DNA of 64,000 nucleotides, taken from contig NC_092674.1 of NCBI RefSeq assembly GCF_964355755.1, forward strand, positions 22,258,001 to 22,322,000, in the 5' to 3' direction. This document shows, in pieces, positions 520 to 32,445 of this stretch (its first letter is position 1; each line of letters starts with the position of its first letter). The stretch comes from Antedon mediterranea. Taxonomy: Eukaryota; Animalia; Echinodermata. The notes below the pieces were generated by a model. The model did no database searches. It saw only the letters and a program-made list of their open reading frames with translations, and was not told the DNA's origin. Made by a program: the position numbers and the translations under genes.

Positions 520-654
520 ATGAAACTGATAATATAAACAATTATTACACTGAAGATGAAAGTCCTACCGTTTCATTTGACTACAATGAAGAGATGGAAA
601 ATTATGAACGTTTCTTGGAACAACAAATGGAAAACAAAGAAGAGACACCAATCG
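520..654 (+). CDS. Internal exon (phase 1-1) of unidentified acidic protein: (D)ETDNINNYYTEDESPTVSFDYNEEMENYERFLEQQMENKEETPI
   Basis: Pyrimidine tract plus tatAG acceptor at 518-519, open purine-rich frame, G|gtaagc donor at 655; 135 nt. An alternative in-frame donor lies at 700. Confidence 0.65.
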
Positions 655-731
655 GTAAGCAAAGGAACGGAATACCTCTTAGGCCCGAGACACCAATCGG
701 TAAGCAAATAAACAGAATACATTTTAGGCCT
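642..731 (+). repeat. 45-bp tandem duplication spanning the exon donor site
   Basis: gagacaccaatcggtaagcaaa...ttaggcc starts at 642 and again at 687. Confidence 0.9.
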
Positions 732-1867
732 ACGAATAGTGTCTGATTCGACCATAAGTTAAAATGTTTATAGTTATAGTAAACATTTTCAGCTCTATAA
801 ATAATAATTATTCGATGGACAGCTTTAACAGCTATTTAGAATATAGTTTAATCTTCATTTTCATGTTTTTGGGCGAGAATAGGCTACATCTTTAAGGTGT
901 AACTCGTTTGTCACTACTCTGAAAATTGGTCTTCAAGTTTAGTTGGGTTGAAACATATTTGGTCATCTTTGCTTTTTGTTTCATCTAAATATTCTTCGCT
1001 GAAAAAGTTCTTTTTTATTCTGAATCCTTAACAAACTGACTATAAAATCGTGCAATGATATTTCCAATATATAAGATAACAATCAATCTATTGATAGTGG
1101 TAACACGAAAGTTGCTAATTATAACAAGGCAAGATCGACATTACTGAATTTCACTCTTCCCTGTTATAACAACAATAGATATTTATTGAATACATACATA
1201 TCCAAGTCTGTCTCTCAATTAAAACATGTTAGGTCTATTATCGTGAAATAATAATAAAGTGAAATTTTTTCCTGGACTCAGAATACACAATTATTAAAGA
1301 TGAGAATATAATTTAAATTGTTGCCTTAGACATTGATTAAACTTACTTTAGCAAAGGTGACATGAAAAAAGTTTGTGTAAACTTCCCTGAAAAACATTGT
1401 ATTTTGGCTAAGTTCCATATAATAAGGCATATAGGTCCTACATGCCATAATATTATGAATTGTATAGAACAATTTCAGTTTTTCTATCTTTGTAGTTTTT
1501 TTTTAATCGTATTTTATGAAATGTGTTTTTTACTATGCATGTATTGTATGAAACATGGTTCAGTAAATGAACAAAAAGTTAAGGAAAACTAAAAATATGT
1601 ACTTGGCGGATTTTCAAAGAAAAAAGAGATTTTCTCGTAAATATACAAATATATTAAATGATCCACTTTTTAGTTGTATTCATATCATCACAATGTATAG
1701 GTTATCATAGCTAGTCATCATGCGACAGTTTCTTTTTCTGTGACATTCCACCACGACTTCTTCCTTGTTTACTGTGGGCATACTTTTAGGTTTATTATCC
1801 ATTACATTATGTTGGCATTTCATTGTCTATAACATAACCATGATTTTATATTTAACAATAATTATAG

Positions 1868-1996
1868 ATAACAACAACGTTGAACTTGATGAAGATATCT
1901 TAAACGAAATAATGATGACATATTTAGAAAATGATGAAGATGGAAATGAACAAACCAGAAACGATATTTTAGTAGGCCTCAATGAAGATGATGAAG
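1868..1996 (+). CDS. Internal exon (phase 1-1) of acidic protein: (D)NNNVELDEDILNEIMMTYLENDEDGNEQTRNDILVGLNEDDE
   Basis: attatAG acceptor, AG|gtaagt donor at 1997, 129 nt, Asp/Glu-rich open frame. Confidence 0.7.
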
Positions 1997-3043
1997 GTAA
2001 GTGGCGTTAAGTAATCTTTAAACATCTATAAACATCGTTCAAATGCGCCAAATCTATGCTCCGGGGAAAGAGAGGGCTCTCATAAAAGCGTTATACGCTG
2101 CCAAAGTGTTGTCCACATTCAATAAACCTTGATAAGTAGTTGCAACCAGTTCTGCAACAAAAGGTTATATACCAAATTAAAAGTTTTTTTTTAAATAAAT
2201 ATATAATAGACTGTTCATATTTAGACCAGTGAACCGATGGCACTGTAGAAGGTGGCAAATTATTTATTTATTAAAATTCAATATACAAATCAATTGGAGT
2301 TAGGCTAACTGTAATTAAAACTAACAACCAACGTTTTGTCTTTTTATCCCCTTTACATCTTCTGTTTTTTACAGAAAAAAAACTACATGTACAAACAATT
2401 ATACATTTTCTAAAGAATATTTTAATATATTTTCTTGAGAATGTCTCTTATTCCATATAATTTCAATAGAGGTTTAAAAAAAAATATTTTCTAATATAAA
2501 TATCATGATTATAGAAGTTTTAGCATTCTTTTTTGTAGAAATTTCTTTCTTTGTTCATAATGCATTTTTATAGATTTCTAAAAAAAATATGATATCGATT
2601 GATTTATGTAGAATATCTATAATCTACCTAATCTATGCTATAGTTAATTGTTTTTGGCCACTCGACTCGCCTCTAAAAGTGTTCATAGAATAATACAGTA
2701 TAGCCTAACATCCTTTAAGGGCACGATATCCAAAGTGATGTTTTACGACTCGTGCTTCTGGTAATTCTAATTTTCAAACACGGGAAATGATGATATTAAG
2801 TTGTATTTTTAGATCTTAGAATTATTACTTGAAATCTGTTCGTGGTAAAACGTATTTTCAGTTATCGCGGTTGGTTTTTAATTAGTTCTGAAACAGCATT
2901 TACAAGATATGGAAAGATAAGCTCTTGGAAATTATATGTCCAGGCTGTGTATTTATTTATCTTACTTGATCTTATGATAAATGTGGAGATTGATGTTTGG
3001 TCGAAAACTACTATCATTTTTGTTGCAAGGTAGTTTATCCCTA

Positions 3044-3224
3044 AAGCTTGGTTCCCACTAGAACGTAACGCAAGGACGTAAACGCAACGCAAGCGTTTTA
3101 ACCAATGACAAGCGAAGTTATAGACAGTTAGCAATCAAAAGCGAATAAGCCATCGCTTGTGATTGGTCAATTCACTTGCGTTGCGTTACGTCCTTGCGTT
3201 GCGTCGCTAGTGGGAACCACGCTT
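3044..3224. mobile_element. Palindromic MITE family A (AGCTTGGTTCCCACTAG termini; Harbinger-like)
   Basis: Long imperfect inverted arms gcttggttcccactag / ctagtgggaaccacgc, flanked by TAA/TTA. Related copies at 24597-24745, 34990-35138 and 50085-50233; partial copy near 10390-10455. Confidence 0.8.
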
Positions 3225-3464
3225 TACAGACACAATTTGTCACGGTAACGTACCCGCTAAACGGGAGTGAAGTGGGGTGGGGGTTCAAACGCACTGTTTG
3301 GATATGAACGAGTGATTGCTCACCAGGTTTCATAGCTTCAACTGTCTTTCTTATTAATAATATGCATATTACCGTTTGTGTATCAGTATCTTTTTAACTT
3401 CTAGAGGTTCGGTAGCTGTTATATCACAGTTTGCTTTTAATAACATCATGATTGTTTTCTTAAG

Positions 3465-3620
3465 GTGACATAAACACACAGACCGTCGAGGAAGAAGCAG
3501 AAGAAGAAGAACTTATCATAGCTGAGAATATTTTACGTGAAATAGAAGATGAATTGCAGAAAGAAAAAATTAAGCAACAGAGTTTATCGAAAAAGAAAGC
3601 CCTTCAAGCCGTACCAAAAG
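3465..3620 (+). CDS. Internal exon (phase 1-1) of acidic protein: (G)DINTQTVEEEAEEEELIIAENILREIEDELQKEKIKQQSLSKKKALQAVPK
   Basis: ttttcttaAG acceptor, AG|gtatga donor at 3621, 156 nt, Glu-rich helical/coiled-coil-like frame. Confidence 0.7.
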
Positions 3621-6271: not shown

Positions 6272-9009
6272 GTTATTAACCTGTATAAATATTGAAATAT
6301 AACATGAACCTCTAGTTTAGAAGACTTTTCTAATACGGCCAAACAGAACTCTTTTCGTATACAGTATATTTATTATCCAAATTGGGTATAGAATCATAAT
6401 TGACCGTTGGGGGCGACAACTTGCATCTGTTTATACCTAGAGAAACTTTATGTCTTCTGGTGTGTTTATGTTTTAAAACTTAAAATGCTTCGAATTGAAA
6501 TCGGTGCAAGATTCCAAATATTTGAGAGAGATCTTAGCTTTGTGCTTACCTAGATTTAACCTATTCCCTTGTCTCTGCTATGTAAAAAAGATAGTATTTT
6601 CAGTTAATAAAAACAAATATTTCTTTTTTGAATTCTACCGCATAAAAAAACATAGAAAGATCCTCTTTGTTTACAATCTATACCCGCCAATTTAGTGACG
6701 TCATCATGGTTCAATATTTTCCTCTTTTACACCCTAGACTACCCCCTAAGGACAACTATCTTACAATTACCTCATTGATTTGACAGGTAAAAGTATGAAA
6801 CTTCTGAATTCTAGTATCTCGAATAATTGGAATTTAATCGCATTTATGTGTGGGTGGTGGAATTTACCAACTTAATGTTTTTGTATAATAAAGCCATTAG
6901 AAGCGTCATCACACTGTAACCTTATGTACTTATACTAATGAATAGACATATGAAGGCTAATTTAATTTACTAACATACTGCATATCTGCGGAAGTGAAAT
7001 ATCGACAATAAACTTGTGTAATTATTACATTACAGTTGAAGCTATAATAACTACTTCACATTATCAATAACTCCCCACGCATAGTAAATCCAAAATGCAG
7101 ATAACAATATCGTGATTTATAGGATAATGGGGAATGTTATTTGTCGTTAAGATACATCAAAGCACGTTTTATATACTTTTCTTTTTTTTTCTGACTTGCA
7201 ATGTGTATTTTTAAAAACTTTGTTACGTAGGCTTGCGTATTTCCATCTTGGCTATAATAATGGTATACACTGAATGTTTATGAGTGCAATGGGGCAAATC
7301 ATTATGTATATGTATCCGGATGTAAAAGATGAGAAATATAACATTTCACCTACTTTCGAAAAGACAGAAATCCGAATAGAGCAATTTTATACGGCGTATC
7401 AATATATCTCATTAGGATATGCAATAGTAAAATTACACGCTATCTGTAGCGTATAAATCAGTATTTTTATTTTATTTTCTTTTTTTTTTATAGTTTAGTA
7501 TATTTAGTTTTTATAGTCAAAACAGCCAAAAACAGAGACACCGTCATATAGATGGATGTTCGTTTGTTTCTAAATAATAAAGTGCGCTGGGTGTCATGAT
7601 CTATGCAATCACTGCGTAAAAAAACTAAGAAATGCGGGTGAAATTTCACAAAAGAGGAAAAACAGACCAAGAAAAGTATGTGAAATCCCCACAAAAGAAA
7701 AAAAAAATCTATTTTTAGTGTATGTATACACATATTGCGACTTCACAATACAATTTGGACTATAATAACATTTCTTTTTAAATCAATAAAAGATGAATTT
7801 TAAAATTGACAGTAATTTGTAATGTAAGGCAGAAAAATGAGTTGCATAAAAAATAAAACGTATCGACATGTTTGCCCTTTTCACATTAACCTGTAGTCAT
7901 GTCGTCCATAATTTGATCATCATAAGACCACAGGCAGACGTCGTATGAATTGTAAGCAGTTTAAATATTATTTATTTCATTATTTTGTAAGAATAATGAT
8001 CGATTAATCATCACTTTAACCTTTGGATTGTTTGGGGGCATCAATAGTTTATAAGTTTAGTTATGATTGGTGAGTTCTTATCATGATGTTATTGTACTTG
8101 TTATATTATTATAGTATTCATCTTATGAGGTATGAAGGATATTAGTATTATTATTATTAATATCATTATCGCACAACACAAAGTAAACGAAGAGGTCGGA
8201 AGATATCATCAATACTTGATAGAGTTGTACAACAAAGTAAACTTACTAGATGCAACTTCATTGGAGCCTGCTTCAACAGAAATTTATAATTCCCAGCAAT
8301 GTTTTAACTGTATATATGAACTGTTTTATAAGTTGTTTTGTGACTGTGCAATTTGGTAGTAGTCACTCTCATACTGTACATTTAAAAGTAACACATCCAA
8401 ATGGCAACTTTAAGTCAATGGCTACCAGATGTATCTGTGAGACGGTTATTTGAACCAGTACCAGTACCAGCTGCCAAGAGAAAGAGTTTGATTGGAAACG
8501 ACCTTAGTCCTATCTATGCACTCTCGTCTGGCCATAGAATCTGTTAAAATTGTGTCGATAAATGGAGCGAGGAGAAGCCATCACTGAAGAAAGGCTACGT
8601 GTAGGGCAATCAAAAGCAAAGTATGGAGTAAAAGAAAGAAATTCTACCTATATGTTGAGAAAATAAATTACTTATGTATTGTAGGCCTATCGTTCTGAAA
8701 TTGTGTTTGTAATATTTTTGTTTACACTATCTTACTCTTTCTATCTCGATTTTCAGTGACGTCAATTATTGCGTAATCTGTTACATGTATTTACTTAATT
8801 AAAATGTGCGTGATCAAAAACAAATTAATAATAAAACATTCGGAAGTCATAATATTGTTGCTTAACAACATCGATTATTCATAATTTGACCCACGTTTTT
8901 TTTAGGCCTATATGAATATAGAATAATTACGCAGACATTTATTTGATGAGCGATGTATACCATTTCAATTTTCCTATTATAGTGGTAACTTGAATTCTGA
9001 CGTCATTCA

Positions 9010-9122
9010 TTTTTAGTCGCGTGGACGCGACTCTATAGTTCACTATGTCGGTCGGTCGGTCTGTCTGTCGGTCCGGTATCACTATGCGTTTTAGCACGCG
9101 ACTTATGGCTGTTGGCCTTGTT
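9010..9122 (+). mobile_element. Helentron-associated (HINE/DINE-1-like) non-autonomous element
   Basis: Starts in a T-run. subTIR agtcgcgtg with adjacent inverted copy cgcgact, (GTCY)n microsatellite, 3' subTIR cacgcgact, short terminal hairpin, ends in TT. Confidence 0.75.
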
Positions 9123-11649: not shown

Positions 11650-11786
11650 CTCCGCCCGCAACATGTCCGGTTCTTGACTACCTTGTTGATGACTGTGAGA
11701 TAGCAGCGGTTGATGGAATTGGTGGAAATGGATATCGTCAAGCATTCAGCGTACCATGCAATTGGCATCAAGTATGCTATACATGT
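11650..11786 (+). CDS. Conodipine-like secreted PLA2-fold protein, exon A (phase 1-0): PPATCPVLDYLVDDCEIAAVDGIGGNGYRQAFSVPCNWHQVCYTC
   Basis: Strong (t)10cttctAG acceptor and gtaagt donor at 11787. F-x-x-x-C-x-x-H-x-x-C-Y-x-C is the sPLA2 active-site helix pattern, with HQ in place of HD. Confidence 0.8.
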
Positions 11787-12586
11787 GTAAGTATTATTAT
11801 ATGCGTTGTATATAAACATACAGATGTCTATATTGGTAAAGTGATAATCATTTTGTCACACATGACATGTCATACTGAAAAGACAAAATAATATGAGAGT
11901 TGGGATTGTGTCTATCGGTCGGCTAAACTTTTCACCAACCATTTTACGCCATTTCAAATAAAAATCATTTTATAATACGTATAGGGATATAGTATGCCGT
12001 GGCAATTTATAAGGACATTTTATGTAAATATCAATCAAAAGGCAAATTATTGAAAAAATTACTTACGAGCGGAACAATTTGCCAATACCATCATACATAC
12101 GAGATATTTAATTAAACAAATGTAAGCGTGTACGATATGCAATTTATACCTTGATTTCACCCGATTCCCAGTGCTGTATCTCCACATACTAGGCCTATCT
12201 ATTTCGGCTGATTGATTTTACACTGAACTTATATACCTTAGCACTTAAACTTAACCCAACCTATTATCTGTTGTATTTGTGTAAAAAAAACGAATGTCGA
12301 TAATGATACGACGCTAAACAATAGTGATTTTTATGACGCTAACGTGCATTTTCTAATTTCGAAAATTATTAAATAATATTATAGTTTAGTCCATTACCAT
12401 CATAAGCTTACACGGTTTTTTTTTATTCTTCGAGTTGGTTTGATAACATTTAAATTGTACTCAAATTATTCATGTTTAGATCTTGCTCGATAACTAGAAC
12501 TGTTCATTTAAATTTATTTATTTATCATTCCAACTTAACGAGGTGAAATATTTCACGCAATCTTTACATTTTGTCATATTTTATAG

Positions 12587-12793
12587 GGATATAGCTATGG
12601 AATTTCACAGGAAATCTGTGATGAAGCTTTCTATTTGGAGATGCTTGCACGATGTGGAAATTCACAAGCGTGCAGCGACAGGGCAGATTTCTTCTTAGTT
12701 GCCGTTGTCGAAGACAGGGTTCCACTGCTGAGATCATCGAGTGTTTGCCAAAATCCGTGTTTAACGAACTTCTTGCTTGGCCTTGATGAATAA
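12587..12793 (+). CDS. Conodipine-like secreted PLA2-fold protein, last coding exon B (phase 0): GYSYGISQEICDEAFYLEMLARCGNSQACSDRADFFLVAVVEDRVPLLRSSSVCQNPCLTNFLLGLDE*
   Basis: ttttatAG acceptor in frame with exon A. G-x-x-Y-G-x-S-x-x-x-C-D-x-x-F-x-x-x-M-x-x-x-C followed by C-x3-A-x5-AV is the group IX/XII sPLA2 C-terminal helix pattern. TAA at 12791-12793. Confidence 0.8.
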   Translation, partial: GYSYGISQEICDEAFYLEMLARCGNSQACSDRADFFLVAVVEDRVPLLRSSSVCQNPCLTNFLLGLDE

Positions 12794-14633
12794 ACTTATG
12801 GTAAGATGTGTTCAAGTACATAATACTGTAGCAAACATTTTTACAGGGGTTCTTCTTAGCGAGTGCAAGCGTAAGCAGGTGAAACAAGATATTAGATTGA
12901 TGAAATTAATTTGTTCTGAAGTCAAATGTCATAATATACTATTACTAGCCAACTTAGGTTTATATTAGTATTCAGATTGTGGATTTGCAAATGGAGCCGA
13001 CGATCGATTATCGAGTTTTGTGTTCAAAGTGTAGACATGCGCACAATTGACATGACCTATTAGGTCGTCGGTCGTGTCAAATGGAAAGTTCTCTATATTA
13101 TCGTTTGGTATACCGTACTCTATGTATGCATTCTTATAACAAAAATCACAATTTAATAGGCCTATTGGAGCCGTTTCTAACCCGCCTTAGTAATTAACAT
13201 TGATTATACCTATAACTTTTTTCTCTCGTCACAGTGCGCATAATTTTGTTAAAACATAAAGTTTGTCATCCATAAACGTTGACGTCAATGGTCGTATTAA
13301 TCTCTCACTTAAAAGAATAATGCAAATAATTTGTCTAAACATCAGATGATTAACAATATATTTTAATTTTTGGGAAGGTTAACTATGCACTACAATACTG
13401 AAAATACAGCAGTTAAATTATAATATAAAATACGTCGTGCGTATTCCAAATCTTTTAAATACATCATAATAAATAAAACGTATTGTTTCTGGTTAATCTA
13501 TCGATAAAAATCCATACCTTTGCCACTAATGATTAGTCAACTGTGTATTTAATGTATCTATTGTTTCTAAAATGTATATTTATTAGCACATCACAATTTT
13601 TGTCAGACAGAGCTTTATGCGCACGCATGCATATTCACATTGCCTCCTTATTGTGACACAATAAACATGCGCAAACAATCAATGTATAGGAATGTTCGAT
13701 TTGCGCGAATAGTGAAAATCAGGATTTGTGTAAATCGTTTTGAATCTTTGGAAAAGTCCTATATTGATGTAATAAAACCAGTATTAACTTTGATTCCAGT
13801 AGTACTGTACGTATTATATTACGACATTACCATCTATTCGTATTGTTTTTTTCTTTTAGAATCTAAGGTTCACGAAGTCTGCTTGCAATAGAAGGTCGCA
13901 CGTCCAATGTTGCGTTTCAGTCGAAGTACACATTTTGCATCACGTCAACAATTTAGTGCCTAAATTCTAATAGAATGAGCAGCAAGAACACAGAGGCCAG
14001 ATACTGCACGCTCGAAATAACTTACTTAGCCTTACTTTAAAATTGTCTGTTGAACGGTTAATTGGGTCGAATGTATTCAAAGACTGACTGTAACAAAATT
14101 TAAAAATAGCAACGTTAACCAATGCTGTATTACAGAGTTCCAATAAAAACCAGACTTGAGATATTTGGATTATCATGGGTAAAATGAAACAAACGAAAAG
14201 TAAACGATATTTAGAATTGAAATAACGTCAACTAATCAATCCAAATCGAGAACTTACATATTATTCCTATTTTAATTCTAAAAAATTAAACACAAAGTTC
14301 AACCAAGATTTGAAATATAATTATCTTGCAAATATATAATACAAATGGATAACACATTTGCTCATAGTATTCATTAGGATACGTCAAAAACGGCAATAAA
14401 CGTGTTATTACTAATTACAACAAGTGTTCGATTTGTCGGTCAAGATCATATAATTCCATTTAGTAGATTGAAGAATGTAAAGGCTTAGAAATTTATTGCC
14501 TATATTTTTGTAGTTGATTTATCCGTATAGAAGATCCAACCACTTAAAAGCACTTTATACAGACATTCATTTTTATAATTGTCTTTCACCTTTTATATCG
14601 TCCATGCTTAGTTTTAAAAATAAAGTAAAGTCT

Positions 14634-14774
14634 GTTTTTCCACTGTACGAGTCTATTGGCGCGAATCGACATGCATGAGCTCTGATTGATTGCGCGTTTC
14701 TTGCGTTGCAAATAGTAGATGGAAATCTGAATAACGCTTTCAAATCGCGTCAATAAATTCGTCTAGTGGAAAAC
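14634..14774. mobile_element. Small MITE
   Basis: Imperfect TIR gtttttccactgtacga / tcgtctagtggaaaac with palindromic interior. Confidence 0.55.
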
Positions 14775-14940
14775 ATGCACAACAAACTTGTTAGTATGGA
14801 TCGCCAGGGTAGAATGTTTGCGGTGTGCTATTATACTGTACATACATACATACAATAGCTGGGCGTGAACATGGAATAGCTTATATTCCTCCCTGGTGTG
14901 AACATACGTCTGTTGTGTCTGGAAACTCAACCTAGGTAAA

Positions 14941-15105
14941 CCGGGGGCATTCATTTTTTTTCCTATGAGACTAAAGTAGAAATCGTGAATAATTCATTAG
15001 AATAATTTTTACATAATATGGGACATTATAGAGGACGCTATATAAGCATGGAGAGAGATTAAATAATTTGTGTAACCTCATAGGAAAAAAAATAATGCAA
15101 CCAGG
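14941..15105. mobile_element. Small MITE
   Basis: Inverted ends gcattcattttttttcctatgag / ctcataggaaaaaaaataatgc. Confidence 0.55.
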
Positions 15106-17385
15106 GAAAAGTAAAATTACATATTCTTACTTTTCCCTGAGTAAACTATGTAGTAGTTAATGATTTTAAACTTGAGATACATTAGTGAAAATCGTGAATT
15201 GTTTACAAGTAAAACCCCCATCATATCTACCGATTAGAAACATGTTGATTGAAAACCGAAAAGTACCAACATTAAGTACGAAAGTGTAACACACACCCAA
15301 AACAATATGCGAATAAGAGGTGTTCTACTGCAGGGCCCGTTCCAGAAGATATGCAGGCCTGTGCTCTTAAAGTTGATTAACCATTAAATATGTTAAATGT
15401 GTTACTTTAATTATTGGTTTATACTTGTCGATCCGTTTTAATTTGGTGTCTCTCTCCGTGCCTTTATCAAAATTTAACCTATACTCAGATGAAGCATTTT
15501 AGTAAAATCCAACAATGCACTATACGTAGAACACCGGAACAATTTAAATCCAATTCGATTCATTAATATTTTATTTTAGTATGTTCGTAATTGTAAGCGT
15601 AATTAGTTAAATAATGATGATTTAGACCTATGTAAACGTTATGTCTGTCGGCACTATTGTAAATTAATAAATGAATACACAGTCATTATATTGTGCTTGT
15701 ATTATGTAGACCTTCCAAACATTAAAATTTGTCGTGGTCATTCATATGGCATCATCATTGTCATCATCATCAACATCCTCATTATCATCACCTGTTATGT
15801 TTCTGTATTTAACCCTCCTCTAGCATTTTCTGTTTCCTCTTCTCTTAAAGATGGTCCTTTTATATTTATGTTGAATATTCCATGTTAATGTCACTTAGTT
15901 ATTCCTTTTGAAGAAACAAACTAGATCGGAAACAATACATATTTACCTGAAAAAATAGTCATATTGTCTGTCAGACAATGGATTTTAATCTTTGTCTGTG
16001 GTTGGGGTGCAATACATCTTTAAGCTATACCACTTTAAAGTTCTCATATATCTATTAACGTCATCTCTCTCTGTTCTTCTTTTTTGTCTTCTTCTCTCCA
16101 CATCTTTTCATTCTTGGTTGCCATTCTGTGACTCTATTAGTTACATATTTTCCGTTATTTTTTTTGTGTCCATCTTCATTTTATTTCTTTTATTTTCTAA
16201 CATTTTTTTTAACTAATGTCTTTTTTGGTATGTCAGATGTTGCCTTTTAGTGCGAGTATTCCACTTTACTTTCTTATTTCCCGTTGTATTGTTATTAATT
16301 TTCGCTCTTCTTTATTTATCCATGTAGCGTTTTAGTAAATATTCCGTATGCTGTACCACTGTGTTTATTTATCCGTACACCGCTGCACAAACACGAACAT
16401 AATTTAAATGAAATTTCACCCATCTGTATTGGCGAAATTATTCACCAAACACAAGGTTCTCAACTGATGCCACGTGAGTAAAATAACCTTAATATGGAGT
16501 GAGGTATGAGCATCATGATGAATATTGTATATGAAAACCACTAATTCGAGGAACATATTGCAGCTATCTTATGGTAGACAAATCTTTATAATAGGCCTAT
16601 ATAATGTGAACTTACATAAGGGTAAAAATCAGTAAATTGCGCGTAACATCTATAATTTTTACCTAATGGTATAGACAGTTGATACATTCTTTCGGTAATG
16701 ATTTTATCCACATTATGTCACCCTGTTAAATAACTAAGTTTAATTAGATAATCATTATTATTATTATTGTCATTAACAATTAAAACGAATTTAGCTTAAG
16801 CGATTTATAGAAATGCTATACGAGAACGGATTTTGGTAGAAAATAAATTGACTGTTAAACTATGACATTAAAATATCTAACGTTCTGGCTTTACCCCTGA
16901 GAAGAATGTCCAGAAGCGATCAAAATAAAAACGAGGCTGGGGTCGAGTTCAGTCACAATCATAAATGTGAATATTCATTAAAATGAATTTATACATCTTT
17001 ATTAAATATTTTGCCATTAAAACGGCATATGGAATCTTTTTCTATTTTTGCATAACATCTGTCACATACCACTCTGCCATTTTGAAATTGGATGTAACAG
17101 CTAAAACTAATGATGAACATTCATCAATTCATCTTATCCTATTAACAAAACAAGTCCCCAAGTATTGATAAAACAAACAATTAAAGTTTGGGTTTGTTTA
17201 CAGAATATGGAAGGTCTCATGTTAATATAACTTTTAGAACAATTTTAATTAAATTATTATGTTTACATGTAGTACAAAAACAACAACAAAACTATGACCC
17301 CAAAAAAGGATGAAACAATGTAATTAGAAGTACAGAGAATTATGAAATAAGATTGGAAATTGTTAAAATAAGATTAGTAGCAAAT

Positions 17386-19127: not shown

Positions 19128-19227
19128 ATGGCACCGGTTGAAACTGTTGGCATTTGGGGAGAACCAACGTCTACGCTAGACTGGTGTGAACGAAATTATG
19201 TACAAACCATCTACATTGCAGAGTTAT
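19128..19227 (+). CDS. ACER3: ACER3 exon 1 [33 protein letters not shown]
   Basis: ATG at 19128, gtgagt donor; DWCExNY Ca-binding motif. Confidence 0.95.
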
Positions 19228-22200
19228 GTGAGTACATTTCGGTAGTATGACTAGCTAGGTCTCTCTATAGTATGTCTAGGGATAAGTACAGTACACAAGC
19301 GCAGCAAGTGTGGTATCGAATTTACCAGTGGTGTGCGTGCCTGGAGGAGGGAACGGCGCAGCTGAACCGTTGCTTTTGATAATGTGTAGTACACGCATTG
19401 TAATAATACGATTTGATAACTCTTTTTAAAAATAGATCTATCTAAAACAAGTTTCAAACAGCCTCTTAATGTTTTTTAATAATAATGTAAATAGCGTAGC
19501 GGGCTATAATAAAACTTGTTTCTTCAACAATTATATTATAATATAAATTCATGTTTTCATAATTTTTATTTAGGAAGTTTTATTTAACATTGGCCAAATA
19601 ATAATTAATATGACGATACAGTAATGATAAAAACTAGACAAATGGATAAGTACCAGCCAAAAAATTGGCGCTTGTGCACTTTCCCACTAGCACCCATTTT
19701 TTGGAAACTAACCGTAACCCTAAAGACAAACATGTAATGTGTGAAGTGAACTAAACATAAACAACTGAGTAATTATAAAAAAAAAAAGTTAAAATCATAC
19801 AGTATTGATTGTTGTTAAATCATAGACCTCCATGGTTAAATTTAGGAAATAGAAGGCGTTGTCAACAAAATGCAGCATATAAATGCCTGTTTGCACTACA
19901 TCAGATGCACTGTCAACCAAGCAGGTATAAATGCCTGTTTACACTACATCAGACGCACTGTCAACCAAGCAGATAGGAAATAATAACAAATGCGTCTTTA
20001 CATCTTATTTTAGGGAATACAGTGAGTAATGTGTTTATGATAATTCCTCCTGCTTTTGGGATTTGGTTTGCTCTGAAGGATGGACTGGAACGAAGGTTTA
20101 TAATGGCATTTCTTGGACTACTTGGTAAGTTTGATCTTACTGTATGCTATCGGGAAAGCAGCAAACTACAAAGGGGCTTGTGTATCTAATCTATCTCCTT
20201 GAGCCCATAAGGTTGCATTGAACTATTTCTGCTTCTGGCTTCGTTCCAAGATGTTCAACCTTACTTCTTGAGCTTGTGATACAGTCTATAAAAAGAGAGG
20301 GTTGCCTTAAGCCTGTTTTCCTGTCGACGTTGAAATACGTTGAGTTGCGTTGAGTTTAAAATCGTTAAAGTTGAAAATAAATTAGCGATGACGATGATCG
20401 AGTCGGACCGCTAATATTTACAAATTTTTACGCCCAGGGTTGTAGCTAAGAATTGTTGAGGGTGGGAAAAAAAATTGTGAGGGTGGTTTTTTACTAAGCT
20501 TGCGAGCGAAGCGAGGAACTTAGGCTGGGGGCCAGGGGGCCGCCAAGGGCCCTCGGTCGGGATTCAGGGGCCGAAGGCCCCTGAAAAAATTTGCTATATT
20601 GACCTTTATAAGACTCATTTTAATGATGGTTTATATGTGTAATTTTTTACATTTTTTTTTATTAATAATATTATCATTGTTCAGGTGAATGATTTTAATA
20701 AAGCAAAACATTACTTTTACCATGGACGTAATTATACGTACCTCCCGGTTTATTACCTCCATGCTTTGACAGTGTAAGTGTAGGCCTACCATTTGGACCT
20801 AAACATAACTGCCTTTGTGGTTACCTTGCATGAATTAAATAAATTTGTTCGATTTAGCCGAGAATATTTTCCAAGATAAAAACCTCTTATTGATATTCAT
20901 GCCGCACAACAACCACGTAGAAAAACATCACGATGTACTTACATGAACGAACGTACATTTCGCCAGGTCTGCGGCCTGGGCGATGAATGATCTAGGCTAT
21001 CATCCGAGCCATACTACAGTATACTCGCGTTAATGATGTAATTCACAAAATAAAAAATATTAACAGTACAAGATATATAGTATGTTTCAATTCAATGTTT
21101 TTTTTTAATAAATACACGTAGTCGGGAAGTTACTCCACAAAGCAGTCGGCGTGGAACGGTTGGTTAGCCTACAGTTTAATTCGCCGGTTTTTTTAAATAT
21201 TCTCCATGATTCATTCATACAGAGGAGATAAGAAAATCGCGCACAGCATGCAAAGCTAGCAAGCTGCATGCTAGGTTGTGATGTTCACTCAAGTGGAACT
21301 TGAGCGTACCGTCCAATCAGCATTAAGTACATGACAGTTCTGCTTGGTTGATTTTCAAAGCTGTGTGTTTTGTGCAAGGCTAGCTGCATTGTGCGATGTG
21401 AGCTAGAATATGCCCGATATTTCGCGGAAAAAAAAGGAATTTAGGGTGGGCGGACAGGTACGTCTGACGCTGGGCGGAAGGCCGTAAAATTAGCTTTAGA
21501 CTGGGCGGGAGGCTTTTAGGCAGGGCGGCCCCGCCCGGCTCCGCCCTGCACAATTACATCCCTGGCGATCGTTCACAGTTTCTTGGTTCTCTCGAGCGTT
21601 GCTGGGACACGCGAACGTGAAGTGTTGCAAAACTAATGCCGACCACGCGCAGCCGGGACCGCGTCAAAATTGAAAAAGTTACGGGTTTTGATGCTTAAAC
21701 CCAGCCTAGGACATGCTTTCGTTGATATCTTAATCTAGGCTTACACTAAAGACAAACATTAAATTTAATTGGTTTAATATTATAATTTAATTTAACTTAC
21801 ACTTGTTTTTTTTAAACATCAGACCTTAAAAGTGTACAAAAAAGGTGAAAAACATCGTCGCGTTGTAAACATTCAAGAATTGTCAGCGCGTACCTATTTT
21901 TTCACAAACTGCAATGACGTAATTTGTGGACCATTTGATTGGTCAGTTTTAACGATCGTAACGATCGTAATCGTTAAAGTTGAACCGAGTTCAACTTTAA
22001 CGATTTAAGATTTTAACGATTTTCAACGTTAATTTTTACCCCCTTTTCCTGTTAAATCGTTGAATATGTCAACTCAACGCAACTCAACGTAACTTAACGT
22101 CGACAGGAAAACAGGCTTTACCACAGAGCAAGTTGCTTGGTTCAAAATTTGTTCTAATACCTCCAATTACATTATTCCTGTACATGAGCCTATACTTAAA

Positions 22201-25200
22201 CCTGAGCTTATACTGTAGTCTTAAAGGTTCATTTGATAATTTTACCCGCTATAAATCCCAAAATGCATTGCGCGCGGATTGATATTTCTGCTTTTCTTCT
22301 GTAATTAACCCACTTTTTTAAGACAAGGAATGACCTGTTTTAATGTTTTTAAAGTAATGTATTATTTTTACAAAACGTCACAAATTGTAGGAAAGGTGTC
22401 TTTAAGTTTATACTATAATTTTATTTGAATGTTATCATGTACAGTATTGTAGTCATGAAATGCACATACTTGGTTTTACTATTTTAATAATAGGAGGCCA
22501 AATATTATAATATAACATTATCTATTTGCTTAGTATATCATAGTATAAGCTGATGAAAAAGCATAGTTTAACTAAAATAATTAAGTCATTATTATACAGT
22601 ATTATCAGCATCATCCTCTGGTTTTCATAATAAAGAATGTGTTTGCTTAGTTTGTCATCTAAGAGCAACTCCTCAATGGTTCAATGAAAAATACATTTAC
22701 TGAGCAAATATGGTGTTGACACTAACAGATCAATATTGTTATTATAAATACAAGAGTACTTGATACACTTTGATTGTTTTATTTATTAGATTTTTAGTTC
22801 ATGCTCCAATTATCTAAAACACTACATGATCAACAAATTTAAATTAGTATACAAAATGTAAAATATTAAATGGTAATAATCGATATAAATAGGAATATGA
22901 TTGTATTCATTCTCCTTTAGGATTGCATTTGTAAAATGTAATGCAAAAAAAGGCAGGGTTAAGCATGGGATTGTGGGAAGGAGGAGGTATACTGAGGATG
23001 CATATTTAATTCCTACACTTGAAACTTATTGTGTGTGGGTGGGTATATATTTGCCTTTTTTGACCCACAGTCAATTATGTTTCGAAGCCCAGAATGGTAT
23101 TAAAGTCCTTATTTGATCAATACTTGTCCAATTTTCCTTCAAACCTGTTTGCAGATGTTATGTTTACACTGTATGTTATATAAATAACGTACAAGTCAGA
23201 GTGCGTTAGTGGAGATTTTTCTGATAAAAATTATGGGGTACTTCCTAATAATATTTTAGGTTATTATATTTATATAGCAAATAATTTTTTTTATACAGGT
23301 GTGACCATTTTTACTTCCTTCCCTGTTCACATCGCCTAGTTGACTCTCTAGTAGTTTATTAATTTATCTATGGTTATCATAAGACTTGGTCTCTAGTTGT
23401 TTTTGGATAGTCAATTTCTTTTTGCACTTTGAGTTAGTGGTATATAGTTCATGAATGCAATCAAGTAAATTCTAATTACACTAAATATATTGTGATCAAT
23501 TGTATTACAATCTTTCCATTAATCTACGCTGCTGTGACCACAAACTGAAACTTATTGTGAAGCAGACAATAGGTATTATGATAGCATTGAGGTCTGTTTT
23601 ATTATCATGAAAACTTACTACAATTATATTATAATAACAGTATTTCAAAGGTGTCAAACAGTGAAAAGAGATTGTTGACCTATAAAGTTTATGAGGTACA
23701 TGAAATGTTCTGATCATTAAGTTTAATATTCTTAAATGTGTTTCCTTATTTTATGAAGCAATGAATAATTATGTAAATTATTGATTATATAAATTTATAG
23801 TATTAATAATAATATATTATATTTAAACATACACTTTTGTAACAGTGGCACATTTCGATGTGAAGGTGTGTTCTGCATAAAAATATATTAAAACCACATT
23901 ACCACACAATGCTAAATATACAATTTACAATAATAATAAAAATGAAATAATAATGAAAACCAAACAGTACCCTGATATTTACGAACCTTCTCCACCCAAA
24001 ATCTAGCCTCTACTCCCAGCGTTCACATTTTAAAATTATATGAATTTTGTTTTTAAACTTTCTAGTGGTTGGTGTTGGTTCTTGGTTTTTTCATATGACA
24101 CTTCTGTATGAGATGCAGGTAAGTACAGTGTAAGGCAACAATCAGGAATATGTAAAATGATATAAAAACAAGTATAGACCCAAATGTCAAAAGATGCAAA
24201 CGCAATTTCCTTGACAATGTTATTGTCATCTTCATACAGTATTGGGTTTCTTTTGATTCAATCTGAAATTAATTAAAAATAGGGAAACAAGGCTGGACAC
24301 ATGAAAACCAATTCAAACTCAATTTCCATGACAATGTAATTGTCATTTTCATATTGAGTGTATTTTAATTCAATCTGTAATAAATTGAAAAACAGGGGAA
24401 ACAAGAATGGACACCAATTTATAAACAATGCAAACACAAATCATTTTTGTATTGAGTGCCTGAAATAAAATGAAAAACAGGGCCAGCTAAGAATCTTTAA
24501 AATATCCCATCAGGAGAAAATAAATGGATTTATGGCTTCAAAATCAATATCTGATACGCTAGTTATGTTCTAAGTTGACAATAAGCATCTTAATTTGCTG
24601 GGGTTACCACTAGAGATGCGACACAAGGACATAAAGGATTTGACCAATCACAAGCGATGAATCAGCCGAACTGATGCCTGTAATTGATCAACTCACTTGC
24701 ATTTCGTCTACATCCTTGTGTTGCATCTCTAGTAGGAACCAAGCTTAAGTGAACATCTGATTTTTTACATATTTGATTGAGGATTTTAAACACTGAGTAT
24801 TGTTTTTTCTGTTGATTATTTTTGTTAACTGATGATTTTAAACATTCAGTTACTACTCAACGAACAAGCTTGTGTTAATTAATGAATAAAACTACAACAG
24901 TAGATTTTCTGTTACATATATTTCCCAATCATTTCTGTAGTTAATGTTGCATCGTGGGAGGTACTAATATATTCATTGCAGTTACCATTACAACAAGATT
25001 GTTTTCCTGTTGTAAACAATAGTTCTATAAACCTGTCTTATGTAGTTTCACTTCTAATTAATTAGTTACTAATTATTTATGTTTAATTTGCAGCTGTTTG
25101 ATGAGTTACCAATGATATATGGAACATGCGTCTTTCTTTATTGTCTGTAAGTGTTTAATAGTTTAATATTGGACTTTAACTTCAGTTCCTTTATCACTGA

Positions 25201-28200
25201 CTCAGATCATATTTGCTGTTTCACCGCGTTTGTTTAATTTTATATTATTTCAGCTGAACCAATCTTCCAATGATATTTTATAGTTAAGTGTATCTAAGGA
25301 TTGACCTTTAGACAGTATCTTTATTATTTATTCCTTTCAATACAATTGATACCATACATTGTATTGCTATTAGAATAGTGAAAGGTATAACATTAAAGCA
25401 TACCATAAACTGGTCTAATGGAAAGATGTCTGCATTCATGCAGAGTAATCCGGGTTCAAATCTAGGTGGAGCGATTTTTCTTTATTTGTCATAGATTAAA
25501 TCGTATTCAACGATTCTAAATTAATTAATTTTCAGCAATCACTGGCAGGTATAGAGTTTCTCTGCCTGTGAATTTATTAATATTAATAATCTTATATATT
25601 ACACATCAATCACATGCAATATGAATTTTGGTTAATTTAGTCTGGTGGTATTGTACTTTTTTTGTTGTAATTTTTTTCTCCTAAATGTGTTCATTTTTAT
25701 TTGTTTTGTATTTCTAATAATAAATAATTCAGATTATTATTCATGTTTCAATCATTAAAACAAGGCCATATACTTGGCTGTAGTCGCGTGCACAAATTTG
25801 AGTTAGTATTTACCAAACGACCAACCGACAGACGTAGTTATTTATTGTTTTATTTATCATTATTATCATTGTTGTTTTTTCAGACTTGAAAGTAATTCAC
25901 CAGAAAATAGTCATAATTACCCACTAGGTGCATTCCTGTGTCTGTATGCTGCTATTACAACATTCTGTTATCTTTTAATTATTAACCCATTATTCCATCA
26001 AGTAAGGAAAATAATTAATTATAGATAAAACATACAAGAGTGTATATTTTACCCCCTTATATTCACACTTGCTGTGTCACAATGAAAAGACATACTTCTA
26101 AATAACTAAAACCTAACCTTCTAAATAATCGCTCTTGTATTTTTAAAACAAACCCTCCAAATAATCTACTTCACAATCACGAAAAAAAGGCATTAAATGT
26201 GTTTGAATCCATGTAAAACAATACCCGTAGTTCAGCTTTTGTACTAGCATTGCTACCATTCTTCCATGTACAATAGCTGCCTATAGAAGATAGCTATCTA
26301 TTAATGCTCTGTCATGCTTCATAGCTCCCTCTATAATTATGCAAATTTCCTTGTACCTAGGAAAATAATTAAACTACTCAGTAGGCTACTACTAAAAATA
26401 GTGTTAAAGAAAATCTATCACTTATAGCACTTTACAATACAAAGAATACTTAAAATTTCACAAACATTTTCTTAATGATTATAGTATAGTGGTCTCTGAC
26501 AAAGCATTGTTAGAAATGAGATTGAATCAATTTCATCTCAGGCCTGTACAATAATGGGCTTGATTACTTTCTGTCACTCACTCCCTTCATTCTTTTGAGG
26601 TTGGACATTGAAATTGGTATATCTACAAAATATCTACAAAAGTATCAAATAGATAAAATATTTAGTTGTTAGCTAAACAAACTATTATTATTTAAGACAT
26701 GTTTAGATTAGGATTTATCTTTGATGTGTTATCTGCTCATTATTCTTATTAAATGAATAAATTAATATATATTTTTGTTCATAGGCAGCATATGGCACCC
26801 TGGTAACTGGATTGTTACTGCGTATGATATATTGCGTCAAGTAAGTGAATGATTTATATTGCAGTTTTCTTTATTTTTAGACTGCTCATTAAACAGGTTT
26901 TAGCTACATAACAAAACTTTAAGAGAGTACTAAACTTGATATTGATAATACTATCAGAATAATGTTTTATTGCAATATGATGTAATAATACAATAAATAC
27001 TGTATATGATATATATAGTATTTGAGAATATCCAACCATACGTTCTCGTTGCCGTTGTCTCTAAGTGTATAACTTAGTAGTATACAAATATTTACTGGGC
27101 TGAGGGGCATGGGGACTCCATCTCGAATATAGTATAGCCTCCAGATCACCTTAGGCTATATTTTTTAGCCCAGTAAATATTTGTTTTATATACCGTACCA
27201 TGCAATTCAGCTAGGCTAGGCCGAAGCGAAGCATAACATAGACTTGTTTGGAGTAAGCCTAGCTCTAAGCTAGTGGCACAGTTTTGCTGCTAAGAAGCAA
27301 ACATCAACAAACGGCATTTAATAATTTGTCGCTTCCAGATACGCAATAAATATTCCCAAAAATGCTTGTAGGCTATAGGCTAAGAGCTAACTACACACAA
27401 GCGTCGCGAGTGTGGATTTATTGTATTAAAGATATTTATAAGATAAAGGAAACAGACATGTTTAGCCGGTTTGAGGGCATGGCAATAACTATATCGGTGA
27501 TTAACCACTCAGATGCTGTGAATTGAAAGGTGCCGGAAACCACCAATCGGGGGAGGATCCATGCGTTCCCACCTTTTGATGGGAAATTAAATATGAATAT
27601 GTACTACTTTTTTATTTCTATTTTTGAATGACTATTAATATTATATGCAATCGTTCCCCTGCCAATTGTTTCTATATGACTGAAATATATATATTTAATT
27701 TCTGAACACAACATTAACCGTGCCATCGTTTTCTTTTATTTTTAGATATGAGGGATTTTCTAAGAGCTTATTTTTGTTTTCTACAGTAATATATGGCACA
27801 GGATTTATTATTTGGAACATTGATAATATATTTTGTCCAAATGTCAGGTACCTGTTAATCATTATATTTAAGATAATAATGTGTGTTTATAACCATATAT
27901 ATCACAGTCACAAAGAATTGTATAACAACATTCTAGAATCTCACTGGTTTCCTAAATCATTTTGGTCTTTAAACGCTGTGAAAAAAATCAGTAAACAGGG
28001 TGTTATAAATATTTATTTTTTAGTGTACTCTAGTGTGTGCCATTTACTATATTCCACATTTAAAATATAATGTGCCCATATATGGACACAATGACGTCAT
28101 ACCACTACCATATTTAGGCACATCAAACTTTTTTATTAAACTAGTTTGATGATGGTGACAAAGATCTTTTTTTGCTCATATAGATCTCTAAGAGACACTT

Positions 28201-31235: not shown

Positions 31236-31837
31236 TTATGAAATAGATTCTAGACTGATTCAACTTAGTATTATTAGTAAAAAATTATTTTTTTAACTGT
31301 TACAACAAGAAAAATGCTGTTATGTACTGCAAAAACTTGTTATTGTTTTTATTTGCAATACCTATAAATATTATTAATATCAATTATCTGTTCTTTCAAA
31401 TGTTTTAAAATTGTTTAGTCTAGTTTCTCAATGTGAATGTTGATGTTGTTAATTTAGTTTTTAAAAGTGATTATCAATATTTAAATACTTATGATTGTGA
31501 TTTTAGTACTCCAGGTATGCTAGGCACAAGACTGCCAACTTCTACTGGTTTAATTATTGACCTACATAATCCTTATCTGTGATAGCAGTTGTAGCTAACC
31601 AACTACGCCATGGGTGCAAGAAGCATCTGCTTGATATTGATTCAGGGAAGATTTATACAAATACTCAGGAGAACATTTTGGGAGTAACCTATTCCCATGG
31701 TGTGTATGTATATCTGTAGACTTTAGTGGCATTTGTGTACCTATTGATACATTGTACATTTTCCTTCTTTCCCTTCCCGATGAGTTTGTATTCCCATATC
31801 CTGGGCGTATGTGTGTCCATATCTAGGGCATATAATT

Positions 31838-32445
31838 ATATCAATATCCAGGGTATATATAATATCGAGGGTATATATCAATATCCAGGGTATATATCAA
31901 TACCCAGGGTATATATTAATATCCAGGGTATATATCAATACCCAGGGTATATATCAATATCCAGGGTATATACTGTATCAATATCCAGGGTATATCAATA
32001 TCCAGGGTATATATCAATATCCAGGGTATATATCAATATCCAGGGTATATATCAATACCCAGGGTATATATCAATACCCAGGGTATATATCAATATCCAG
32101 GGTATATCAATATCCAGGGTATATATCAATATCCAGGGTATATATCAATATCCAGGGTGTATATCAATACCCAGGGTATATATCAATATCCAGGGTATAT
32201 ATCAATATCGAGGGTATATATCTATATCCAGGGTATATATCAATATCCAGGGTATATATCAATACCCAGGTTGTATATAAATATCCAGGGTATATATCAA
32301 TACCCAGGGTGTATATCAATATCTAGGGTGTATATCAATATCCAGGGTATATAATAATATCCAGGGTATATATCAATATCCAGGGTGTATATCAATACCC
32401 AGGGTATATATTAATATCCAGAGTATATATCAATATCCAGGGTAC
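31838..32445. repeat. 19-bp minisatellite (tatcaatatccagggtata)n, about 30 copies
   Basis: Periodicity read directly; it explains the three overlapping ORFs at 31726-32354. Confidence 0.95.

Follow-up and report, generated by a model that had tools for sequence, protein, structure and literature searches.

A candidate granin-like protein ending in a probably inactive phospholipase A2 domain in the crinoid Antedon mediterranea and other bilaterians

Introduction

Among the closest described systems are phospholipase A2 (PLA2) pseudo-enzymes and granins. PLA2G12B and otoconin-90 have kept the PLA2 fold and lost activity through a calcium-binding or catalytic residue, and snake homologues changed at residue 49 retain His and Asp for the integrity of the fold. 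Secretogranin II is encoded in one exon. Granins, 7B2 aside, are to our knowledge vertebrate proteins, and we know of no granin with a PLA2 domain.

Secreted PLA2s (sPLA2s) require calcium and the C-C/x-x-x-H-D motif (PMC6635587), and conodipine-M likewise requires calcium (PMC3914837). Snake PLA2 homologues changed at residue 49, Gln included, are listed in PMC5727668 among weak or inactive forms. The criteria given for granins in PMC10548473 are a signal peptide, an acidic pI, calcium binding, low-pH aggregation and neuroendocrine expression; that source also describes how amphipathic helices sort cargo to granules. A hydrophilic, largely Cys-free sequence, many dibasic cleavage sites, residence in dense-core granules, aggregation at pH 5.5 and heat stability belong to the functional definition as well. 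Rat secretogranin II has a sorting helix of 17 residues, starting with MIRA, near its signal peptide (PMC5642266). According to PMC11196111, no chromogranin or secretogranin has been identified in Drosophila; the same source likens the large acidic neurosecretory precursor Sparkly (CG4577) to secretogranins and describes it as lacking Cys and orthologues beyond Diptera.

The window analysed here is a stretch of 64,000 nucleotides of AT-rich, animal-type DNA from the crinoid Antedon mediterranea (contig NC_092674.1, positions 22,258,001 to 22,322,000). Two exons in it encode a domain in which His-Gln replaces the catalytic His-Asp of PLA2s.

Gene structure and transcript

The features of the gene in the window are as follows.

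520..699, + strand: acidic-region coding exon, starting at residue 163 (tblastn 100% to the Antedon protein; AG..GT borders)
1868..1996, + strand: acidic-region coding exon, 129 nt, phase 1-1 (spliced contig, tblastn, borders)
3465..3620, + strand: coding exon, 156 nt, with an acidic helix (259-297 in the model) and then the basic site KKK (residues 293-295) (spliced contig, tblastn)
11650..11786, + strand: first exon of the PLA2-fold domain, residues 303-348, five Cys, 137 nt (AG..GT; spliced contig)
11688..11696, + strand: degenerate calcium-loop segment D-D-C (GAT GAC TGT), missing the conserved Gly of short His-Asp relatives
11766..11771, + strand: His342-Gln343 (CAT CAA) in place of His-Asp, identical letters in the spliced contig
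12587..12800, + strand: second domain exon, residues 349-416, five Cys, C-D-x-x-F helix (AG..GT)
12620, + strand: Asp360 of the C-D-x-x-F helix, in exon 12587..12800
12791..12793, + strand: stop codon, followed by 7 nt of 3'UTR to the exon end at 12800
13860..15246, + strand: last exon, non-coding 3'UTR, up to the end of the spliced contig (which need not be the RNA end)

A search with the second domain exon returned a whole Antedon mediterranea protein and its orthologue in the crinoid Anneissia japonica. The gene, which a sequence-only reading had taken to be hidden, is already listed in RefSeq as 'uncharacterized protein' (XP_071950595, 416 aa; XP_071950593/4, 431 aa), and the domain, read there as a small stand-alone protein of ~113 aa, is the tail of this 416/431-aa protein. 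The isoforms differ in the use of two donors in exon 520..699, one after 654 (416 aa) and one after 699 (431 aa); a 45-bp tandem duplication at 642-730, with a copied splice donor, underlies them. The first 162 residues are encoded upstream of the window. In the six frames of the window, the motifs C-x-x-H-x-x-C-Y and C-D-x-x-F occurred once each, in this gene, with no second copy.

Run X1 contained a single contig of 2857 nt at depth 558, against about 1-6 in the introns, with joints at 699/1868, 1996/3465, 3620/11650, 11786/12587 (800 nt skipped) and 12800/13860, all of them GT..AG, and with zero letter differences from the five coding exons. This contig used the downstream donor at 699 and extended ~650 letters beyond exon 520, a length that fits the 162 N-terminal residues encoded upstream. 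The DNA-type runs X2 and X3 covered the introns, and none of the splice joints of X1 was present in either. X1 is taken to be RNA from its GT..AG joints, none of the listed runs being recorded as RNA, and its data come from one study.

Translation, the AG..GT borders and the 11786->12587 joint confirmed that the two exons splice in frame into a domain with ten Cys, as had been proposed from the letters. His-Gln and D-D-C were verified in the genomic letters, and His-Gln also in the spliced contig. The joints further showed that the 3'UTR intron suspected behind a gtaaga donor is real (12800->13860) and that, of three upstream donors put forward, the true one is 3620, which is joined to 11650; 8069 and 10065 appeared in no joint among those listed. 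The sequence-only reading was thus right about the domain and its splicing but missed the acidic pro-region, three of whose exons lie in the window at 520-3620. It also overlooked the spread of the family across Bilateria and the nerve-centred expression in starfish, both described below.

Residues 1-25 of the Antedon protein are hydrophobic and signal-peptide-like, as judged by hydropathy only, and residues 32-51 are predicted to form an amphipathic helix, whose hydrophobic moment lies in the top 5% of the pro-region. Residues 98-285 consist of Asp and Glu to 36% and contain zero Cys; the pI of the protein is about 4. The basic sites are KK, KK and KKK, with no KR. KKK293-295 directly precedes the cysteine-rich domain, and Anneissia has KK295-296 ahead of its domain. 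The PLA2-fold domain comprises residues 308-416, the last 109 of the protein, with ten Cys and a net charge of -8. Between Antedon and Anneissia, identity was 77/109 (71%) in the domain, 96/188 (51%) in the acidic region and 7/22 in the linker; the higher value for the domain agrees with the earlier view that the gene is maintained. A protein-atlas comparison of residues 1-303 gave no match.

Fold of the cysteine-rich domain

Based on a family alignment of 45 sequences, the model of the domain had a pLDDT of about 90, with predicted helices at 328-352, 356-371 and 375-390; a first model from four sequences (pLDDT 38) was discarded. Among 557 chains, the best three structural matches were 8k1w, 7ygk and 4aup, the sPLA2s of Saccharothrix, Sciscionella and Tuber, which we take to belong to group XIV. 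Their scores (Z 7.9, 7.6 and 7.0; rmsd 3.0-3.2; 83-87 residues; 18-23% identity; next row Z 5.7) are middling and below the tool's line of 8. Among 48,161 chains, the Tuber sPLA2 4aup came first (Z 7.0; next 6.1). Compared with hhalign, the family profile matched a profile of 10 short His-Asp relatives, themselves found with the Antedon query, with a probability of 99.2 and an E of 7.8e-20 over 105 columns. Independently, Pfam places 10 of 12 such relatives in PF09056, PF06951 or both, with E no higher than 0.01.

Other searches returned less. With the exons and the whole crinoid proteins, Pfam gave no PLA2 match (PF09056/PF06951) at the curated cut-off; in the 45 family members there were weak matches to PF09056 in 4 (best E 0.02) and to PF06951 in 3 (best E 0.011). 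Foldseek with the whole Antedon model found nothing at E 0.001, its best hit by probability (0.82, E 0.71) being a bacterial PLA2, and sequence searches against solved structures gave chance matches only. Protein-atlas neighbours were PF09056/PF06951 clusters at 0.83-0.84, which we treat as a lead only.

From the profile-profile match, the structural matches and the Pfam placement of the short relatives, we regard a conodipine/group XIV-type (bacterial-type) PLA2 fold of the Antedon domain, as judged by profile and model, as settled. The conodipine-like fold proposed earlier is therefore upheld, by the profile-profile probability and by sPLA2s as top structural matches, but without a significant E-value from Foldseek. 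The likeness to 8k1w, 7ygk and 4aup is one of fold at middling Z, whereas those proteins are short active enzymes. With conodipine (group IX) and the short His-Asp sPLA2s the family has in common the Cys frame and the C-x-x-H-x-x-C-Y and C-D-x-x-F helices. Unlike them, it has lost the Asp after His, the calcium-loop Gly and the helix-3 Tyr, it has no alpha/beta linker, and its domain is acidic; unlike the short sPLA2s, its domain ends an acidic precursor of 370-950 aa and falls on a separate branch of the tree.

Distribution of the family

Employing phmmer against 1.84 billion representatives, we obtained 52 matches, which with the Antedon protein made 53 rows. Of these, 12 were His-Asp proteins of 121-400 aa that lack an acidic pro-region, and the other 41 belonged to the family. 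Two family rows, an intron read-through fragment and a duplicate domain, were dropped, leaving 39. Named members came from Anneissia, Acanthaster, Strongylocentrotus, Amphiura, Saccoglossus, Ptychodera, Glandiceps and Branchiostoma (echinoderms, hemichordates and amphioxus) and from Limulus, Centruroides, Nephila, Galendromus, Leptotrombidium, Macrobrachium, Argopecten and Plakobranchus (chelicerates, a prawn and molluscs); a Lytechinus member was found in a separate search. The orthologues include XP_030838064 of sea urchin, XP_019634814 of amphioxus, XP_069103969 of scallop and LOC135214799 of prawn. Among these 16 named matches (21 of the 52 matches, and none of the 12 short relatives, were looked up), there were no insects, nematodes, cnidarians, tunicates or vertebrates. 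Word-based homologue searches returned crinoid, echinoderm and hemichordate members only. Members are at present labelled 'uncharacterized' or bear names ('FK506-binding protein 5', 'midasin-like', 'eIF5B-like') that reflect composition. Sparkly was considered as a member and rejected, as it has no cysteines (PMC11196111).

In a first tree of 51 rows, with two fragments left out, ambulacrarians grouped with amphioxus, chelicerates grouped together and so did the named molluscs. A second, unrooted tree was built from 99 columns, without four active-site columns; in it, one branch with an SH-aLRT of 95 separated the 39 family rows from the 12 short enzymes.

Active-site residues

We compared the 39 family rows with the 12 short His-Asp rows. 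Asp followed His in 2/39 family rows and in 12/12 short relatives; at this position, 21 family rows have Glu, 15 have Gln, 2 have Asp and 1 has Leu. The calcium-loop Gly was present in 4/39 against 11/12, both calcium-site residues (Gly and Asp) in 0/39 against 11/12, and the helix-3 Tyr in 0/39 against 8/12. Retained in the family were His (38/39), the Asp of C-D (38/39), the Tyr after C (39/39) and all ten Cys (37/39). All nine ambulacrarian rows (Antedon, Anneissia and seven others) have Gln after His, so that the check on relatives called for earlier returned His-Gln as a shared trait. Asp after His was seen in the Limulus copy (P0026) and in one fragment (P0020), which are nested in the chelicerate His-Glu group and have no calcium-loop Gly; judged by this placement, it is probably a later reversion.

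The loss of the calcium site across the family, the calcium requirement of sPLA2s and the behaviour of the snake residue-49 forms together provide good support for an enzymatically inactive domain. The label of candidate PLA2 pseudo-enzyme given to the two exons is thus likely to be correct, to judge by the residue counts. By analogy with the snake residue-49 homologues, the retention of His342 and Asp360 probably reflects a part in holding the fold together. The snake Lys49/Gln49 homologues have likewise kept the fold and lost activity via the calcium-binding residue (PMC5727668). More generally, PLA2G12B, otoconin-90 and the snake homologues represent different PLA2 groups, and the Antedon family is acidic, not cationic. 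As the loss of the calcium site is common to deuterostomes and protostomes, it is probably far older than the losses in other PLA2 pseudo-enzymes; inactivation probably predates the protostome-deuterostome split, as far as the residues tell.

Retention of His, of the Asp in C-D and of the Tyr after C across the whole spread of the family, together with an acidic Glu after His in 21 of the 39 rows and Asp in the Limulus copy and one fragment, could instead indicate an enzyme of altered chemistry, either a calcium-independent lipase or acyl hydrolase or, in the His-Glu forms, an enzyme of weak activity, working on granule or synaptic lipids. We consider this quite improbable: the position after His has drifted, being occupied by Glu, Gln, Asp or Leu, the calcium-loop Gly and the helix-3 Tyr are gone too, calcium is needed by sPLA2s (PMC6635587) and conodipine-M (PMC3914837), and substitutions at residue 49 accompany little or no activity in the snake proteins listed in PMC5727668. 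The same active-site changes would be expected of a decaying pseudogene of a conodipine-like PLA2. That reading was refuted by the spliced contig, the intact frame, the His-Gln kept in all nine ambulacrarian rows and the detection of an orthologue as protein.

Layout shared by the family

Layout was counted in 35 family proteins of at least 360 aa, with P0082 and P0071 substituted for two partial rows. An N-terminal hydrophobic stretch, by hydropathy only, was found in 30 of the 35. Among these 30, the pro-region was free of Cys in 26 and the mature pI was below 5.5 in 23; four arthropod members had a basic pI (7.6-8.8). Asp and Glu made up a median of 23.5% (range 13-41%; echinoderms and hemichordates 24-41%). 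The median number of dibasic sites was 13, with only 1-5 in echinoderm and hemichordate members. The domain formed the C-terminal end in 30/30, as the last 65-99 residues counted from the His motif. Its net charge was -8 in Antedon, with a family median of -4 and +3 in the short relatives.

Behind the signal peptide, the helix pattern hydrophobic-x-x-A-L-x-x-hydrophobic occurred in 23/30; one occurrence lay inside the signal peptide, so that 22 were genuine. The background was 0.22 expected from shuffles, 11/180 control windows and 0/12 short enzymes; the pattern was written after the sequences had been seen, and the shuffle value therefore flatters it. Neither the Antedon protein nor any family member listed matched the Pfam granin profile in scans whose filters drop weak matches, one of them with 25 of 44 families displayed. 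The actual finding, in our view, is an unnamed family, present in deuterostomes and protostomes alike, in which a granin-like body is coupled with a PLA2 pseudo-enzyme.

Expression of the starfish orthologue

The Acanthaster orthologue oki.218.6 (P0010, identified by sequence and accession) is listed in the radial nerve cord proteome of PMC9971248, with 'Y' for SignalP. In Tables S2 and S4 of that paper, its TPM was 1046 and 1332 in nerve, 451 in podia, 274 in sensory tentacle, 88 in spine and 33 in mouth, and below 6 in testis, egg, oocyte and gastrula. Among 29 comparison rows, taken from 142 secreted proteins that all come from the nerve proteome, log-TPM correlation was 0.98 with PC2, 0.96 with the TRH-type precursor and 0.95 with 7B2 (ranks 2, 4 and 5), and 0.70 with CPE, the median of the 29 rows being 0.68; ranks 1 and 3 were uncharacterised genes. 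All of the nerve evidence comes from a single data set, with ten tissues, from a starfish, a member of another echinoderm class than the crinoid. In the tables of the same paper, oki.218.6 appeared in the SDS-PAGE (insoluble) table and the secreted list; it was missing from the tables in which 7B2 appears, those for the soluble RP-HPLC fraction and the neural bulb.

Four uncharacterised secreted starfish proteins, oki.15.122, oki.17.142, oki.253.16 and oki.30.14, have a similar nerve-centred profile in Table S4 (r 0.88-0.98; PMC9971248) and are candidates for further unnamed neurosecretory proteins.

Nerve TPM was 12-15 times spine TPM in these tables, a ratio that argues against an otoconin-like acidic matrix protein of the calcite skeleton or of another extracellular matrix. 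To such a role would point the strong acidity, highest in echinoderms and hemichordates (Asp and Glu 24-41%), the signal peptide, the inactive PLA2 fold and some expression in spine and podia. The family is also present in animals without a calcite endoskeleton (amphioxus, spiders, mites, a shell-less slug), and a literature search for a link to skeletal matrix found nothing; we give a matrix role little credence. A toxin for defence or venom, of the kind represented by conodipine or the Lys49 myotoxins, as suggested by the fold common with conodipine-type enzymes and by members in scorpions and spiders, is very improbable indeed. The domain has a net charge of -8, whereas Lys49 toxins act via a cationic region (PMC5727668); the pro-region is long and acidic, the protein is conserved in harmless animals, expression is centred on nerve, and oki.218.6 was absent from three supplements of the spine-secretion paper PMC10448888, a comparison made without a positive control. 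The toxin-like or otoconin-like role first suggested for the two exons is not supported, in view of the acidic charge of the domain, the nerve-centred expression and the occurrence in animals without a calcite endoskeleton.

Tracking of PC2 and a neuropeptide precursor in starfish would also suit a prohormone, from which a PLA2-fold domain acting as a neurohormone or receptor ligand is freed and whose acidic part serves only as a disposable spacer. The domain is the best conserved mature part (71% against 51%), both crinoids have a basic site ahead of it, and its ten Cys are kept in 37/39. However, its surface is highly variable between phyla, the starfish orthologue is not among the soluble nerve peptides, and the pro-region has a conserved helix of its own. 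We therefore think a prohormone unlikely. Since granins also yield peptides, according to PMC10548473, it would be compatible with a granin-like protein. It stands nearest among the rivals, followed by a residual enzyme, a mineral matrix protein, a toxin and a pseudogene.

A granin-like reading of the family

Several granin criteria find a counterpart in the family: an N-terminal hydrophobic stretch or signal peptide and an acidic, hydrophilic, largely Cys-free body (pI below 5.5 in 23/30, Cys-free in 26/30). Neural expression was seen in the starfish orthologue only, in whole tissues. In rat secretogranin II, the sorting helix has the spacing hydrophobic-x-x-Ala-x-x-x-Ile-Glu and a position like that of the family helix (PMC5642266). 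On the basis of the granin criteria and this helix likeness, we somewhat favour reading the acidic protein with its predicted signal peptide, by analogy, as a granin-like matrix and sorting protein of neuropeptide (dense-core) granules that carries a likely inactive PLA2 domain.

As a granin-like protein, it would enter the secretory pathway through its signal peptide. The amphipathic helix behind the signal peptide and the acidic Cys-free region would allow the protein, in the acidic trans-Golgi, to condense with calcium and to help in packaging neuropeptides, and prohormone convertases may trim the protein at basic sites, many in protostomes and few in echinoderms. The disulfide-locked PLA2 domain would cleave no lipid and could serve as a folded anchor that binds membrane or a partner.

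With vertebrate granins, chiefly secretogranin II, the family has in common the signal peptide, acidic pI, long Cys-free region, helix and, in starfish, neural expression, and part of the family also has numerous dibasic sites; unlike secretogranin II, the Antedon gene is interrupted in its acidic region by several phase-1 introns. The likeness would be one of functional type; in sequence, the resemblance to vertebrate granins is confined to the short helix, with no profile match among the members listed. Against the granin-like reading count the detection of oki.218.6 in the insoluble fraction only, with no processed peptide in the soluble tables; the few dibasic sites in echinoderm and hemichordate members, with no KR in Antedon; the basic pI (7.6-8.8) of four arthropod members; the correlation of only 0.70 with CPE and the lack of a Pfam granin match for any member listed; and a composition (acidic, Cys-free, dibasic-rich) common to many unrelated secreted proteins. 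We hold it to be distinctly unlikely that vertebrate granins have their invertebrate homologue in this family, in which case the bilaterian ancestor would have had a granule-packing protein with sorting helix, acidic body and dead PLA2 domain that gave rise to secretogranin II by loss of the C-terminal domain; if true, granins would gain an origin and a traceable marker domain.

The gene models were known already. Searches of the open literature, which cover neither subscription journals nor figures, returned no description of the family, including as a PLA2-domain prohormone or a granin-like invertebrate precursor, and an accession search in full texts returned no paper. Two neuropeptide catalogues, PMC9793003 for crinoids and PMC6586643 for sea cucumber, lacked the family motifs in the parts searched, where a positive control worked; the motifs were also not found in the searched parts of a scallop catalogue, in this case without a control.

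The family bears on the way in which the dense core of neuropeptide granules is assembled in the neurons of invertebrates, where chromogranins and secretogranins have not been recognised. It supplies a candidate that is abundant (>1000 TPM in starfish nerve) and common to deuterostomes and protostomes. Thanks to the conserved cysteine domain, its orthologues are readily recognised, unlike those of acidic granins, and so starfish, sea urchin, scallop, prawn or amphioxus could be used to test the dense-core question. The family also adds a PLA2 pseudo-enzyme whose inactivation probably preceded the protostome-deuterostome split.

Other features of the window

Downstream of the PLA2-fold gene, at ~19140-28300 on the + strand, lie exons of an alkaline ceramidase (ACER3-like), near 19182, 24068, 25100, 27747 and 28230. 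One of them matched Pfam Ceramidase at E 2.3e-05, and the others we take to be ceramidase exons from their motifs; no link to the PLA2-fold gene was seen. Within this stretch, 20825-21564 is a repeated element with a 1424-nt X1 contig at depth 67 and raised GC in its bin; it may be a mobile element that lies within the ceramidase gene and is transcribed.

Very high-copy interspersed repeats occupy introns at 3041-3226, ~8170-8440 and ~9010-9100; the first has inverted ends and a depth above 200,000 and is MITE-like. Reverse-transcriptase (LINE-type)-like fragments with stops or frameshifts, recognised by eye, lie at 42098-42841 on the - strand. Minisatellite arrays at 31837-32449 (19 bp), 52225-52557 (22 bp) and 53328-54303 (17 bp) give rise to spurious long ORFs.
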